From NCBI GenBank assembly GCA_022828145.1, contig JAJEJA010000009.1, forward strand, positions 31,254 through 95,253: 64,000 nucleotides of DNA, read 5' to 3'. The position numbers and the translations under genes are program-made. This DNA comes from Candidatus Poribacteria bacterium (GTDB taxonomy: Bacteria > Poribacteria > WGA-4E > WGA-3G). The notes below the pieces were generated by a model. That model was given only the letters and a program-made list of their open reading frames with translations. It searched no databases and was not told the DNA's origin. Of this stretch, positions 1-11,427 are shown piece after piece (positions within the stretch are counted from its first letter, which is position 1; the number at the start of each line of letters is the position of its first letter).

Positions 1-1061
1 TTGATTGCAGCATTGACATCTCTATCTATTGAGATACCACAACAGCCACATTGATATGTTCTTTCGGATAGGTCTAAGTCTTGCTTTTGGTGTCCACAAC
101 TACTGCAGGTTTTTGACGACGCAAAAAATTGGTCTACTTCTTTGGGGATTATACCGTGGGCTTCTGCTTTAGTTTTTAACATAGAAAGAAATCCGCCTAA
201 GGCACTATCGGACAATGCCTTCGCTAACTTCCTATTTTTCAGCATATTGGATACTTTCAAAGTTTCAATACCTATGCCAGATGCACGGCTAACTATATCG
301 GTTGTCGCTTTATGATGTGCATCGTTTCTGATACAGGCAATCTTATAGTGTAGCCTGGCAATCTTAGCATTTTGCTTATACCAGTTTTTAGACCCTTTGA
401 CGCGTTTGCTTAACCGGCGTTGACACCTTGCTAACTTCTTTTCGTATCGTTTCAAAGGTCTTGGATTCTCGTATTTACTACCATCTGAACAAGTTGCCAA
501 TGTATTTATACCCACATCAATGCCGATAACAGGGTGCGTTGAATGCTTATCAACTGCTATAGTGTTCTCTGTCTCAACAGTAATAGATACAAACCAGCGG
601 TGGGCAGTCCTTGATATAGTAATACTGCTAATCTTGCCTTCAAAACGAAGTTCTTGAAACATTTTTACCCAACCAATCTTTGGCAGCCTGAGCTGCTTGC
701 CTTTTATTTCTGCCGATTGATTAGTAGATGAAAAGGAATCTCTGATGCCTTTCTTCTTAAATCTTGGAAACCTTGCTAACTTCTTAACCCAGTTCGTTAT
801 CGCTGCACCTAAATGCTTATAGATACTTTGCTGTGAAACAACCTGATCCATATCAGCAGTCCAAGCATATTCTTTTTTGTAGACATTGAACCTTGCGTCT
901 AACTCGCCAGCAGATAGATATTCACCTGTTTCGGCACAGTGTTTTTTGAAATCTGCTAACGCTTGATTATACGCAAACCTGGCATATCCACACTGCTGTG
1001 CAAACCATTTGCGCTGTTTATTGTTAGGATTTAATGCGATTTTATGGGTACTTTTAGGCAT
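1..1061 (-). CDS. tnpB: IS200/IS605-family TnpB (OrfB, IS1341-like) transposon-associated RNA-guided endonuclease-like protein. The C-terminus runs off the window start
   Basis: Minus-strand translation starts MPKSTHKIALNPNNKQRKWFAQQCGYARFAYNQAL at revcomp 1059-1061. Near position 1 it reads ...CSSCGHQKQDLDLSERTYQCGCCGISIDRDVNAAIN, the typical TnpB C-terminal zinc-finger motif. No tnpA is adjacent. Confidence 0.8.
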   Translation of the reverse strand, partial: MPKSTHKIALNPNNKQRKWFAQQCGYARFAYNQALADFKKHCAETGEYLSAGELDARFNVYKKEYAWTADMDQVVSQQSIYKHLGAAITNWVKKLARFPRFKKKGIRDSFSSTNQSAEIKGKQLRLPKIGWVKMFQELRFEGKISSITISRTAHRWFVSITVETENTIAVDKHSTHPVIGIDVGINTLATCSDGSKYENPRPLKRYEKKLARCQRRLSKRVKGSKNWYKQNAKIARLHYKIACIRNDAHHKATTDIVSRASGIGIETLKVSNMLKNRKLAKALSDSALGGFLSMLKTKAEAHGIIPKEVDQFFASSKTCSSCGHQKQDLDLSERTYQCGCCGISIDRDVNAAI

Positions 1062-1182
1062 ATATGACTCTGTAAAGTTGCTGACTTCCATTAGTGTGGT
1101 GTGGCAGTTGCACTAACAACCACCACTAAGTCAATCCTATTAATATACCACACTGCATTCCTTATATCAAGCTGTTTGGTCT

Positions 1183-1226
1183 CCGTGTCTACATCACCGA
1201 GCTAAAGCTTCGGTGTCTTGACACGG
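1183..1226. mobile_element. Imperfect 44-nt nested hairpin immediately upstream of tnpB, a candidate IS left-end subterminal palindrome
   Basis: ccgtgtc (1183-1189) pairs with gacacgg (1220-1226), and caccga (1195-1200) pairs with tcggtg (1210-1215). There is no U-run, so it does not look like a terminator for the IMPase gene. It lies between the tnpB start and the IMPase stop. Confidence 0.4.
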
Positions 1227-1243
1227 GGGAGTGATAATACCAT

Positions 1244-2014
1244 TCAATTTCCATCAAAATATCTCATTACAGTATCATGCAGGACTCCATTCGTTGCTAC
1301 CAATGAGGCAGTGTCTATCGAAATGGCTTGTCCTTGTATATCAGTAACGCACCCGCCTGCCTCCCGCACAATAACAGTAATCGCAGCGATGTCCCATATA
1401 CTAATTGCTGCTTCAATTACAACATCTGCTCTGCCAGAAGCCACGAGGTGATAACTGTAGAAATCACCAAACCCTCTTGAACGCGCAACATCATTGATAA
1501 GATTGTAGACACCGCGGAACGTTCCCTTTTCAACAAACCATTTCAGTCCGCCATGACATATCATCGCATCTGATGATTGAGAAACATCTGATACTTTAAT
1601 CTGATTGCCATTCAGGAATGCTCCTTTACCTACTTGTGCATATAGTAGTTCATCTAATAATGGGGCATTGGAAACGCCAAGTATAAGCTCTTCACCTTTC
1701 ATCAGTGCGATCTGTGTTCCAAAAATAGGTATTTTTCGTATATAATTTTTTGTTGCATCAATTGGGTCAATAATCCATACGTAAGGGGAATCACCCTTCT
1801 CAATGCCATATTCTTCTCCCAAAAACCCGTGGTCTGGAAAGCTCTGTTTGATGGTCTCCCGTATCGCTTTTTCTGCTTCTGTGTCTGCACGTGTAACCGG
1901 GGTTTCATCCGGTTTTAACGTCACGTCTAATGTATCTGCGTTGTAATATGAAAGCAGTATCTCTTCGGCTCTTTTTGCTGCATCTAATGCAACTATTAGA
2001 AATTGACTATCCAT
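1244..2014 (-). CDS. Inositol monophosphatase family protein (IMPase/SuhB-like)
   Basis: 256 aa with the WIIDPIDATKNY motif and overall IMPase/FBPase-family architecture. Confidence 0.8.
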   Translation of the reverse strand: MDSQFLIVALDAAKRAEEILLSYYNADTLDVTLKPDETPVTRADTEAEKAIRETIKQSFPDHGFLGEEYGIEKGDSPYVWIIDPIDATKNYIRKIPIFGTQIALMKGEELILGVSNAPLLDELLYAQVGKGAFLNGNQIKVSDVSQSSDAMICHGGLKWFVEKGTFRGVYNLINDVARSRGFGDFYSYHLVASGRADVVIEAAISIWDIAAITVIVREAGGCVTDIQGQAISIDTASLVATNGVLHDTVMRYFDGN

Positions 2015-2517: not shown

Positions 2518-3747
2518 TTAATGCCACGCTTCTTTAATTTTTAAAATCGCTTCAACTATCTGATCCATGTCTGACGTTGTTCCAAGTAGCATGTTCTGAA
2601 ACAGCCACACACTCTGACGACATACAGATTCAGCATTAGGACACGGTAACGTTTGTATCCGATTAGGATACTTCTCTGCAACATGAGCAATGCCAGGTTC
2701 TTCGGACAAGGGTGAACGGTAACCCGTTGAGCATGGAATTCCTTCTGCGGATAATGCGTTGACAAATTCCTGTCGAGATTTATTACCAAAGTCTTCTGGT
2801 TCGTATTTCATACAATAGAGATGGTATCCATGTTTTGTTACCCAATTAGCATGTTTCGGTGGCGTGATCCCGTCAATCTGTTCCAAGGCATTGCTAAGAT
2901 ATAGCGCGTTTCTATTTCGTAAATTGGTCTGTTCTTCAAGGAGTTCCAATCTCACCAACAGTATCGCAGCAAGATATTCAGAGGGGCGGTAGTTCCAGCC
3001 GAGTCTTGGATATTCCCATCTTGCCCCACCAGGCGCGCGTCCAACATTCATGAAAGCACAAACGCGATCATGTATGTCCTTATCATCTGTTGTCACCATA
3101 CCCCCTTCACCAGATGTAAGATTCTTTGATGATTGAAAACTAAATGCACCCACATCTCCTACACTTCCCACTTTTTTGGATTGATATTCCGCACCGTGTG
3201 CCTGGGCACAATCTTCTACTATCTTCAACTCGTGTTTGTCTGCTATCTCTTGTAGTGTTCCCATATCAGCTGGATGTCCGCCTAAATGTACGGGTAGGAT
3301 TGCATGTGTATTGGGGGTAATTGCTGCGTCAACTGCCTCGGGATCAATCGTGAATGAATCTGGACACACATCAACAAAACAGACTTTGCAGTTACGTTCT
3401 AACACCGCGCTTGCTGTAGCAACAAAAGTGTAATTCGGTACAATCACCTCGCCACCATCGCTGAACCCATCAAGATCTAATGCCCCAGCTAATGCTGCAC
3501 TGATGGAATCAGTTCCATGTGGCATAAAAATAGCGTAATTAGTTCCTGAATATTGTGCATATTTATCAGAAAAACGTGGGATCATCGTTCCGCCAGAACC
3601 CTCATGACCACTAAAATAAACTTCACGAAGTAACGGTTCAATCTTATCATCCCACTCATCAATAGAATGATAGGGCCACGTCTTCCACGGTTGTTTTTTC
3701 GTATCCCTGACTGGAGTACCGCCAGAAATTGCTAACTGATTGGACAT
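2518..3747 (-). CDS. DegT/DnrJ/EryC1/StrS-family PLP-dependent aminotransferase
   Basis: 409 aa with the FSFQSSKNLTSGEGGMVTTDD motif (the PLP lysine region of the DegT family). Confidence 0.8.
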   Translation of the reverse strand: MSNQLAISGGTPVRDTKKQPWKTWPYHSIDEWDDKIEPLLREVYFSGHEGSGGTMIPRFSDKYAQYSGTNYAIFMPHGTDSISAALAGALDLDGFSDGGEVIVPNYTFVATASAVLERNCKVCFVDVCPDSFTIDPEAVDAAITPNTHAILPVHLGGHPADMGTLQEIADKHELKIVEDCAQAHGAEYQSKKVGSVGDVGAFSFQSSKNLTSGEGGMVTTDDKDIHDRVCAFMNVGRAPGGARWEYPRLGWNYRPSEYLAAILLVRLELLEEQTNLRNRNALYLSNALEQIDGITPPKHANWVTKHGYHLYCMKYEPEDFGNKSRQEFVNALSAEGIPCSTGYRSPLSEEPGIAHVAEKYPNRIQTLPCPNAESVCRQSVWLFQNMLLGTTSDMDQIVEAILKIKEAWH

Positions 3748-3987
3748 TCAAAACACCATAAATTTATCATGAGTTTGTCAAATACATTAAACATAATAGG
3801 CAGAACTTATGTCTAAATCAATCAATAAGTAACGTTTGGTTTAATTTTCTCGTAATATGCAATTGTATAACACATAGCGTATCTTATTTTAGAGGCAATT
3901 GCAAGTGAAATTCACCAGGATAGTTATGTGTCTTAAAGTTATTCTATTTTACTTGATTATGTTTTGAATAAAAAAGGAGTACTTAAA

Positions 3988-4905
3988 TTGAGGAAACAGT
4001 GTACATTACTGCTTATACTAAGTTTGGCAGTTATCGGTTTTACCGGTTGTGAAAACCTTAAAGGTGTTATTGGAGAGAGTTACCAACCGAGTATGAACCA
4101 ACCAGAAGAATTTACGCTTGCATTCGTGCAAGAGGCAATTGATTTATACAAGACTGACGGAATAGAAGCGACAGTAGCACATTATGGCAACCCAGAAAAC
4201 ATAGAAGGACAGTGGTATGTATTTATCACGGATGTAAATAACATTTATGTTGCTCACGCTTTAGCACCAGTATTTGTTGGTAGGAACATAGCTGGAATTG
4301 AAGGTGTTGATCGCTTGACTATTGGTGCAGAAATCGCAGCAGCAACTGAGGAAGGACATTGGACAGAATATATTTGGCCAAATCCTGAGACAGATAAATT
4401 AGAACAGAAACGGACTTGGTCTATACGATATGATGGATACCTTTTCGCTTCTGGCTATTATGAACCCTGGGCACCAGACCCCGCATCTCTTCTAATCGCA
4501 TCAAAGGACAACCCTGTAAGATATGCACGTTCACTTGTTCTGTCTGCAATCGCATATTATGAAAGTGAAGGCATCGCGGCAACAGCTGCATACTATAACG
4601 ATCCCGCAAGGGTAGATGGACAATGGTACGTATTCATTACAGATGAAAACGATCTCTTTGTCGCACATCCAGTCCGACAAGATTTCGCAGAAAACAGAAC
4701 TGATCTAAAAACCATCGTAGGTTCTGATGGATATGAACTCGGCATCGAAATTGCAAAAGCAACAGGAATAGGCCGTTGGGTAGATTATCTATGGCCAAAT
4801 CCTGAAAGTGGCAAGGAAGAACAGAAGCGGACATGGGCAATTCGCCATGACGGTTATCTGTTTGGAACAGGATATTACCAACCAATTTCAACTGATTCAC
4901 AGTAG
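3988..4905 (+). CDS. Lipoprotein with two tandem sCache_2-like (single Cache) domains
   Basis: Signal peptide with lipobox LAVIGFTGC. There are two internal repeats carrying GQWYVFITD...VAHP...WPNPE...KRTW..DGYLF..GYY, which is the Cache_2 pattern. The probable TTG start at 3988 is preceded by AAGGAG; the ORF track starts at TTG 3964. Confidence 0.5.
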   Translation: MRKQCTLLLILSLAVIGFTGCENLKGVIGESYQPSMNQPEEFTLAFVQEAIDLYKTDGIEATVAHYGNPENIEGQWYVFITDVNNIYVAHALAPVFVGRNIAGIEGVDRLTIGAEIAAATEEGHWTEYIWPNPETDKLEQKRTWSIRYDGYLFASGYYEPWAPDPASLLIASKDNPVRYARSLVLSAIAYYESEGIAATAAYYNDPARVDGQWYVFITDENDLFVAHPVRQDFAENRTDLKTIVGSDGYELGIEIAKATGIGRWVDYLWPNPESGKEEQKRTWAIRHDGYLFGTGYYQPISTDSQ

Positions 4906-9642: not shown

Positions 9643-11427
9643 CTACTTTAAACGCGCTTCTAAGGCATCTAATTCGTCTGACAAAGCCTTTGGCAGTCTC
9701 TCCTCAAACCGGGCATAGTGTTCACGGATTGATGCAATCTCATTTAGCCACTCTTCTTTGTCTACATGCAGTAGTTCATCCATCTGTTCTTCAGTAACGT
9801 CGATGCCAGAGGTGTCAATTGCATTTTTCGCTGGCACATAACCTATCGGTGTTTCAGTAGCTTCCGCTTCACCGTTGATCCGATCAACGATCCACTTCAG
9901 CACACGACTGTTTTCTCCGAAACCTGGCCACAACCACCCCCCATCTTCATCTTTACGGAACCAATTAACATAGAAGATACGCGGGAGTTTATCCGCATCT
10001 GTTTTCTCACCCATCTCTAACCAATGTGCAAAGTAATCCCCCATATTGTATCCACAGAATGGGAGCATTGCCATAGGATCCCGTCGCAGTTCGCCAACTG
10101 TACCAGCAGCAGCAGCAGTTCGTTCTGACGAGGCAATTGAACCGATAAACGTTCCATGTTGCCAATTGAACGCCTCAAACACAAGAGGAACAGTGGACGC
10201 CCGTCTACCACCAAACAGAATTGCAGAAATTGGTACACCATTCGGATCTTCCCAACTCGGATCTATGATAGGACATTGTGATGCAGGCGTCGTATAACGT
10301 GAATTAGGATGGGCAGCAGTTTTTTCATCACCAGGATGCCATTCTTCACCAAGCCAACTTGTTAATGTATCCGGCACATCGTCACTCATCTCTTCCCACC
10401 AAACATCATTGTCTTCTGTCAGTGCGGAATTCGTAAATATAGAGTTTGATGCAAGCGTGTGCATTGCATTCGGGTTTGTATCCATAGATGTCCCTGGAGC
10501 AACACCGAAGAATCCTGCTTCTGGATTGATCGCATAAAGCCGACCATCTTCACCAAATTTCATCCATGCGATATCATCTCCGATTGTTTCTGCTTTCCAA
10601 CCGGGTATCGTCGGTGTTAGCATGGCAAGGTTCGTTTTTCCACAAGCACTCGGAAATGCTGCCGCAATGTATGTCTTTTTACCTTCAGGACTTGTTAATC
10701 CTAAGATAAGCATGTGTTCTGCCATCCAACCATCATTTTTTGCCATAATTGAGGCGATCCGGAGCGCATAGCATTTTTTACCGAGTAATGCGTTACCACC
10801 ATATCCACTACCAAAAGACCAGATTGAACGTTCTTCAGGAAAGTGCACAATGTACTTATTGTCAGGATTGCAGGGCCAAGAAACATCTTTCTGTCCGGGT
10901 TCAAGTGGTGCACCAACAGAGTGTAAACACGGCACAAAATCACCATCTTCACCTAAGATATCCAACACCTCTTTACCCATACGAGTCATAATACGCATAT
11001 TCACCACAACATAGGGTGAATCACTTATTTCAACACCGATATGTGAAATTGGTGATCCCAGCGGACCCATACTGAAAGGAACAACATACATAGTTCTGCC
11101 TTTCATGCACCCCTTAAATAAGCCATTTAATGTTGCCTTCATTTCTACTGGATCGTGCCAATTGTTTGTTGGTCCTGCTTCAGCTGGGGTTTTGGCGCAG
11201 ATGTATGTCCTTCCTTCAACGCGAGCAACGTCTTCAGGATCAGAGCGTGCAAGGTAGCTGCCGGGTCTTTTATCCGGATTTAGACGAATAAAAGTCCCAT
11301 TTTGCACCAATTGTTCACAGAGTCGGTCATTCTCCTCTTGTGAACCATCGCACCAATAAATATCATCGGGTTGGCACAGCTCCGCTGTCTCCTTAACCCA
11401 ACTGAGCAGTTTACTATTGTTTGTCAT
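9643..11427 (-). CDS. pckG: Phosphoenolpyruvate carboxykinase (GTP)
   Basis: 594 aa with the [18 protein letters not shown] signature of GTP-dependent PEPCK. Confidence 0.9.

Follow-up and report, generated by a model that had tools for sequence, protein, structure and literature searches.

A probable tnpB-only member of the IS200/IS605 family with IS608-like ends in Candidatus Poribacteria

We analysed a 64,000-nucleotide (nt) stretch of DNA from a Candidatus Poribacteria bacterium (assembly GCA_022828145.1, contig JAJEJA010000009.1, positions 31,254 to 95,253; hereafter the window), whose left edge cuts through a tnpB gene. Poribacteria are uncultured bacteria and sponge symbionts. With a probability of about 0.9, positions 1-1233 (minus strand) form the left 87% of a 1,417-bp non-autonomous insertion sequence (IS) of the IS200/IS605 family, with IS608-like ends and an IS1341-type organisation (Table 1). 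The element is an ordinary relative, newly seen but typical of a well-studied family; a full-text literature search for TnpB and Poribacteria together found no paper.

The left boundary was defined by comparison of ten copies that lie in unrelated contexts. In all of them similarity starts sharply at TTAT^CAC (the caret marks a junction), with unrelated flanks upstream and an invariant TTAT that is preceded by T in 6 of the 10; the copies align from TTAT^CACTCCCCCGTG onward and all read CACTCCCCCGTGTC... after TTAT. The first base of the left end (LE) is 1233, and the target TTAT occupies 1237 to 1234 on the minus strand. Three element-free strains, whose inositol monophosphatase family gene (IMPase) is 94-95% identical to that of the window, provide the corresponding empty sites: L052/L053, L055 and L057 read TGAATGGTATTAT^TGTTGATAT, so that the occupied TGAATGGTATTAT^CACTCC stands against an empty TGAATGGTATTAT^TGTTG, and in two further strains, L050 and L179, the element is present at this same TTAT after IMPase. 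No repeat flanks the element, hence no target-site duplication was seen, and insertion directly 3' of a specific tetranucleotide is a hallmark of the IS200/IS605 family. An earlier reading made from the letters of the window alone (the sequence-only reading) had let the element end at 1240, which is 7 nt too far; the target motif that it expected near 1230-1240 could be defined as TTAT.

The complete element was read from L179, a 240,881-bp contig of a sister sample, where it spans 2591-4007 and shows 0 mismatches to window 1233 to 1 over the 1,233 shared nt. What the window lacks is 184 bp beyond position 1, comprising the last 47 codons of tnpB, its stop and the right end (RE; 41 nt after the stop). 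In this 1,417-bp copy and in the 1,412-bp copy of L050, tnpB is the sole gene, as the sequence-only reading had supposed in calling it a solo tnpB of the IS1341 type. The LE runs 172 nt to the tnpB ATG, the coding region is followed by 42 nt to the RE end (including part of the TAA stop), and neither interval of the L179 element holds a tnpA; the element is for this reason filed as non-autonomous and tnpB-only rather than as an autonomous IS605 or IS608.

The 44-nt nested palindrome at 1183-1226, which the sequence-only reading took for a structured left end, is real and belongs to the element: it is a left end of the canonical IS608-like type, kept in the ten copies and missing from the three empty sites. 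Folded as single-stranded DNA, its outer 7-bp stem (1220-1226 with 1183-1189) encloses an inner hairpin (1195-1215), in the layout TTAT^CACTCCC-CCGTGTC-AAGA-CACCGAAGCTTTAGCTCGGTG-ATGTA-GACACGG. The fold reaches -13 kcal/mol, against -4.8 +/- 1.7 in shuffled sequences, none of which (0/200) was as stable. The same two-tier fold is built from other stem sequences in four diverged Poribacteria copies, L010, L013, L015 and L008 (outer stems CGGTGTC/GACACCG, CCGCTA/TAGCGG, CCCGTC/GACGGG and CGGGC/GCCCG); these relatives were folded singly, and indels misalign the diverged copies in a column-wise covariation count. The inner hairpin agrees with the L050 RE hairpin at 20 of 22 nt and is likely the TnpA-binding hairpin, as far as prediction goes. 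A search of the JGI metagenomes for the exact LE-hairpin pattern gave 0 matches. Together, the subterminal hairpins of LE and RE, without terminal inverted repeats, are the ends expected of the IS200/IS605 family.

Between this hairpin and tnpB, the LE carries a putative sigma-70-like promoter, and diverged relatives have TTGACA/TATACT or TTGAC./TATAAT at its position. The tnpB leader folds into a further predicted hairpin, after which diverged relatives have a CACACC(A/T)C motif. This hairpin is the inner part of a second predicted structure (window 1094-1154, minus strand), whose outer 8-bp stem, 1093-1100 with 1147-1154, overlaps the -10 box.

The protein itself is a regular TnpB. The reverse complement of 1-1061 is free of stops over 353 aa and runs off the window edge; the sequence-only reading had the extent right and the length slightly short, at 350 aa. 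Matches to HTH_OrfB_IS605 (E 1.6e-8), OrfB_IS605 (1.9e-32) and Cas12f1-like_TNB (1.3e-18), all above the curated Pfam cut-offs, cover the HTH/WED-REC, RuvC and zinc-ribbon domains, and the D-E-D triad of the nuclease is intact. This triad and the four zinc-ribbon cysteines, the C-terminal zinc finger of the sequence-only reading, are all within the window. A truncated or frameshifted tnpB, against which that reading had hedged, was not found: P0001, the full-length protein (410 aa from the gene caller) of a 158,558-bp NCBI/ENA contig that is evidently the source contig, is 100% identical to the window part, with RuvC-III and zinc ribbon intact. In sister copies a GGAG Shine-Dalgarno sequence precedes the ATG at 1059-1061. 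Pairwise dN/dS among 8 tnpB copies is 0.10-0.23, so TnpB is under purifying selection; copies within one genome differ by a dS of 0.08-0.22.

The right end was defined by 11 further copies, by the occupied L050 set against the intact VWA-domain gene of L052, and by L181. In the near-identical strains it reads ...CACCAGAGCTTTAGCTCGGTGAGTATGTCAA^, and in L181 the end and its flank read ...AAGAATCACCAGAGCTTTAGCTCGGTGAGTATGTCAA^CTTCTAACACATTTTATAATG; the sample that yielded L181 also contains the window's exact IMPase, and one L181 protein recurs on the source contig. The element of the source contig is accordingly expected, if it follows these strains, to end in ...AATTTGAGAAATGTCGCGGTAGGGCATACCGAG...TATAAAACCTAAGAATCACCAGAGCTTTAGCTCGGTGAGTATGTCAA^CTTCTAACACATTTTATAATG. 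The RE module, whose hairpin is present in L050, L179 and L181, consists of AGAAT, a hairpin with a TTTA loop, and AGTATGTCAA, the element ending after TCAA 10 nt past the hairpin. In L001, L002 and L003 (at 11275-11280; one genome), GTCTCT is common right after the ...GTATGTCA end while the further flanks are unrelated; possibly these copies extend 6 nt beyond this end, or else insertion favours a particular sequence 3' of the site.

The sequence-only reading had also placed the omega-RNA just outside the window, and this is where the relatives put it. When the terminal ~210 nt from 24 diverged copies were aligned, RNAalifold returned four helices in the tnpB 3' end and RE. In these, 93.8% of the cells are paired, vs 34-50% when the partners are slid by 1-3 columns; double-sided (compensatory) changes occur in 12 of 24 pairs, and no column shuffle out of 500 reaches the covariation score. 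The conserved RNA structure of the relatives amounts to the last ~175 nt, and its first covarying helix, within the NVAVGHTE codons, starts ~10 nt beyond window position 1. The structured omega-RNA expected of a TnpB is thus documented on the relatives and the near-identical strains. For this element the predicted guide is CTTCTAACACATTTTA and the predicted transposon-adjacent motif (TAM) TTAT, which would direct RNA-guided cleavage. A match of the full copy to the Rfam family HgcC (16 bits vs a 50-bit cut-off, E 0.71) was sub-threshold and was not used.

The coding and RNA functions of this region overlap to different extents among the relatives. In alignment A1 (columns 121-240; L017-L030 vs L050/L001), the tnpB of the 363-aa subgroup ends with TAA directly after the first omega-RNA helix, whereas in the window's subgroup the open reading frame (ORF) continues through the omega-RNA scaffold for ~37 codons more, as in ISDra2; one lineage consequently translates RNA-coding DNA that stays untranslated in the other.

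We found no TnpA by tblastn (IS608 and IS200 TnpA as queries) in the window or in the ~1 Mb around 47 Poribacteria copies to which the search was confined. As a positive control, the same queries matched in 12 unrelated metagenome loci; the absence of tnpA claimed by the sequence-only reading therefore holds for the window. These loci came from a metagenome scan for the RE core TTTAG-N4-GG-N-GAGTATGTCA, which found at least 120 loci labelled human gut, microbial mat and others; among the matches listed, 12 loci encode a Y1 transposase (52-83% identity to the IS608 TnpA query in local tblastn matches). The TnpA-encoding loci have the same RE module and a two-tier LE hairpin preceded by a TTAY target, for example TTAC^CAAAT-GCGAGC-GTAAA-GCCCCTAAATTTATTTATGGGG-ATATAA-GCTCGC.

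Across the metagenome contigs L059-L178, the RE core AGAAT-CCCC..TTTAG..GGGG-AGTATGTCA(A) is nearly invariant (at least 120 contigs) and the TnpBs are only ~30-35% identical to that of the window. The element end, which is also the 3' module of the guide RNA, is in other words far more conserved than the protein.

Several points weigh against our placement of the element. Its own RE and omega-RNA lie outside the window and were taken from the near-identical L179, L181 and L050; Rfam gave nothing at the gathering threshold in the window and no significant family for the full copy; we infer the promoter, the omega-RNA ends, the TAM and the guide from sequence. Current mobility is unproven since no cognate tnpA was found in the ~1 Mb searched, and the divergence of copies within one genome is such that transposition may be rare or past.

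Other explanations have to be set against the same evidence. The palindrome could be read as a terminator or regulatory hairpin of the host DegT-DCC-IMPase operon, given its stable fold on the same strand 17 nt downstream of the IMPase stop. However, it travels with tnpB through ten unrelated contexts, is not found downstream of IMPase in the IS-free L052, L055 and L057, and shares its two-tier design with the left ends of TnpA-encoding IS608-like loci; it also has no T-tract and is not called by the terminator scan, which together with its absence from the empty sites shows that it is no terminator. We consider a host hairpin extremely improbable, and the empty sites refute the terminator reading. 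The tnpB gene could alternatively have been domesticated or inactivated, into a TldR-like RNA-guided repressor or a decaying relic. No tnpA is nearby, the junctions are common to strains whose flanks diverge by 3-5% (pointing to a copy long in place), and within-genome copies have diverged, all of which would fit. Yet the RuvC triad and zinc ribbon are intact, as are LE and RE with their target and cleavage motifs; the element is multicopy at different sites (at least 5 full copies, a copy of 75% aa identity and a deleted copy in one 5.9-Mb genome) and its copies are under purifying selection; moreover, most tnpB genes have no adjacent tnpA and are still taken as mobilised in trans (PMC10055086). 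This makes domestication or decay very unlikely, and TldR identity is ruled out by the retention of both catalytic residues and transposon ends.

As the window cuts the element and its 3' part is not directly visible, a tnpA (Y1 or serine recombinase) just past the window edge might render it autonomous; but in L179, L050 and L181 tnpB stops 42 nt before the RE end and a truncated VWA gene follows, the source contig has the same 118-aa VWA fragment, and only 172 nt separate LE and ATG. We give this next to no credence. The same holds for an IS607-type element or an IStron (group I intron plus tnpB), both of which are known to carry TnpB (PMC10055086): the element holds no serine recombinase and no second ORF, Rfam detects no group I intron in the window or the full copy, and both ends have hairpins of the IS608 type, next to a TTAT target on one side and finishing in TCAA on the other. 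We thus retain a tnpB-only IS200/IS605-family element.

Table 1. Features of the element and its surroundings (window coordinates unless a locus is named)
Feature	Position	Strand	Remarks
IS part in the window	1..1233	-	1,233 of 1,417 bp; similarity of ten copies starts here; identical to L179
TTAT target of insertion, predicted TAM	1234..1237	-	Host DNA, outside the element; invariant in 10 copies and in empty sites
Two-tier LE hairpin	1183..1226	-	Outer stem CCGTGTC/GACACGG; inner CACCGAAGC-TTTA-GCTCGGTG (1195-1215); folds, relatives
Putative sigma-70-like promoter in LE	1142..1170	-	TTGATA, 17-nt spacer, TATATT, extended TG; consensus match 10/12; function inferred
tnpB 5' leader hairpin	1101..1126	-	GTGGTGGTTGT-tagt-GCAACTGCCAC; predicted fold; kept in relatives with other stem sequences (by eye)
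tnpB coding sequence	1..1061	-	Codons 1-353 of 400; ATG 1059-1061; alternative upstream ATG 1089-1091 used by gene callers
RuvC-I Asp D182	516..518	-	Aligned to ISDra2 TnpB D191
RuvC-II Glu E266	264..266	-	Aligned to ISDra2 E278
RuvC-III Asp D348, IDRDVNAA motif	18..20	-	Aligned to ISDra2 D361
Zinc ribbon CSSC (aa 319-322) ... CGCC (aa 338-341)	39..107	-	Cas12f1-like_TNB match aa 291-353; motif positions
IMPase	1244..2014	-	Pfam Inositol_P E 3e-58; ORF list; TGA stop 1244-1246
VWA-flank evidence	L050 8150-8260; L052 6742-6800, 8880-8990; L179 4001-4360; L181 144-500		Beyond window position 1

On its left, the element abuts an operon whose genes, on the same strand, were confirmed by Pfam to be IMPase, a DCC1-like gene and a DegT-family aminotransferase, as the sequence-only reading had named them. 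The IMPase stop (1246 to 1244) lies 6 nt upstream of the TTAT target and adjoins the LE as proposed, though 17 nt beyond the palindrome and not 3 nt, a distance that applies to the coordinate 1240. Insertion at the 3' end of this operon is likewise borne out; what had not been foreseen is the other flank, which lies in a truncated VWA gene. The right flank CTTCTAACAC... is inside the 3' third of a VWA-domain gene, and in IS-free strains it follows a second TTAT (AAATTTAT^CTTCTAACAC), 2.1 kb from the TTAT at IMPase. L050 and L179 lack precisely the stretch from one TTAT to the other, which holds an acetyltransferase gene and two-thirds of the VWA gene on its 5' side. The source contig holds the same 118-aa VWA remnant; gene callers report an ORF of 118-119 aa because an ATG inside the RE (gtATGtcaa) is in frame with it. 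By these comparisons, the element appears to sit at a deletion joint and to carry an associated deletion, rather than to be a simple insertion.

The simplest reading is that recombination between two direct copies, one at each TTAT, removed the 2.1 kb; a two-copy intermediate would have the junctions RE^TGTTGATATGACC and GCAAATTTAT^CACTCCCCC. Alternatively, TnpA could have catalysed a target-to-target deletion, in which the LE guide would pick the upstream TTAT and the intervening DNA would be excised as a circle; to our knowledge, and with no literature search aimed at it, such a deletion has not been described for IS200/IS605 elements. This deletion route, coupled with a possible nuclease-driven homing or conversion between strains behind the 100% identity of the interior, strikes us as unlikely when taken jointly. 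The interior identity contrasts with the flank: window 1-1233 vs L179 2591-3823 has 0/1,233 mismatches, window 1234-2014 vs L179 1810-2590 has 41/781. Compared with L050, the tnpB part is 99% identical and the 172 nt of non-coding LE 84%. This patchwork suggests that IS copies have converted or replaced one another; for the 100% identity, ordinary concerted evolution is an alternative to homing or conversion between strains.

A scan of one genome per species yielded 47 loci, nearly all labelled Poribacteria, and a protein search returned thousands of TnpB relatives, the top matches with a named source all being labelled Candidatus Poribacteria. One 5.9-Mb genome has five full copies (91-93% aa identity), together with a more diverged full-length one (75% aa) and another with an internal deletion. 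Within the 64-kb window, blastn and tblastn with the element, the L050 RE and the L050 LE found no second copy or solo end. The short-read assemblies L048, L049, L051 and apparently also L058 break inside the LE, which is consistent with a repeated sequence, and exact matches to the window's IMPase were found only on short contigs that end inside the LE.

Copies also differ in integrity and in their left ends. L041 (9838-10865) is internally deleted, its LE being joined to the last 208 codons; in L007 (3114-3200), 8 nt of the LE outer stem (GACACGGA) are duplicated in tandem; and L054 (2404-2778 and 5535-5951), the IS-free DegT-IMPase locus of the 5.9-Mb genome, has an HTH_OrfB_IS605 fragment and an IS1 DDE fragment. 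In L009, L043, L044, L047 and L014-L031 (upstream of 10001; 56-85% TnpB identity), the LE hairpin is simple and single-tier, and the conserved sequences that adjoin the LE differ: one group has approximately TTGAC there, the 363-aa group approximately TGAAG. Among relatives with 77-85% protein identity, the left ends and apparently also the target motifs are different, which suggests, as judged from these alignments, that related TnpBs have switched target and TAM.

How the element would move can be outlined from work on ISDra2, IS608 and ISGst elements (PMC8612924, PMC10055086). A Y1 (HUH) TnpA coded elsewhere would bind the LE and RE hairpins in single-stranded DNA, excise the top strand as a circle and insert it 3' of TTAT without target duplication. 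The sigma-70-like LE promoter would drive tnpB, and transcription of the omega-RNA would start in the 3' part of tnpB and run across the RE into the adjoining DNA. TnpB loaded with this RNA would then cut sites made of TTAT plus guide, that is, the IS-free donor joint, predicted to read GGTATTAT^CTTCTAACAC, and recombinational repair of the cut joint would restore the element. That TnpB works with an omega-RNA, and that its TAM equals the TnpA target, has published precedent (PMC8612924), as have donor-joint cleavage and the mobilisation of tnpB-only elements in trans (PMC10055086).

For annotation, the analysis settles the left boundary at 1233, the TTAT target and the nature of the hairpin, and shows the neighbouring operon to be intact and merely abutted. 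The catalogue of TnpBs gains a lineage from Candidatus Poribacteria, its ends and omega-RNA region delimited and its TAM predicted to be TTAT, which may be of interest to groups mining compact RNA-guided nucleases. The understanding of the family is unchanged, the proposed mechanism being the textbook one, and the deletion joint and conversion pattern are modest curiosities.

Among known systems, the ends are closest to those of IS608 and IS608-like elements, with which they share the RE module (GAAT, a TTTA-loop hairpin, AGTATGTCAA, with TCAA closing the element 10 nt beyond the hairpin) as well as the two-tier LE hairpin behind a TTAY target, which is TTAC in the IS608-like loci and TTAT in the window; as in IS608 of Helicobacter pylori, insertion is 3' of a tetranucleotide and without duplication. 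The window element departs from them in having no tnpA (non-autonomous), in its TTAT rather than TTAC target and in its Poribacteria host, and the TnpBs of the IS608-like metagenomic loci are only ~30-35% identical to its own. For the protein, the closest natural solved structure is ISDra2 TnpB of Deinococcus radiodurans (PDB 8H1J, 8BF8, 8EXA; E about 1e-58), which is alike in domain order, length (400 aa here vs 408), aligned D/E/D residues and a C-terminal tail coded over the omega-RNA region. The ~150-nt RNA of ISDra2 spans the tnpB 3' end and RE and takes a guide of ~16 nt from the flank (PMC8612924), matching the covarying region here. ISDra2 differs in its TAM (TTGAT, vs the TTAT predicted here), in having tnpA, and by many substitutions throughout the alignment. 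In lifestyle, the element resembles ISGst2 of Geobacillus stearothermophilus, a tnpB-only element that a single TnpA probably mobilises in trans, with a TTTAT TAM (PMC10055086) comparable to the invariant TTAT and frequent preceding T seen here, and with end motif and TAM differing at two positions (TCAA vs TTAT). ISGst2 is from another host phylum, and no cognate TnpA of the window element was found in the ~1 Mb searched. Finally, the IS1341 label describes organisation only, a single tnpB (orfB) between ends of the IS200/IS605 type.

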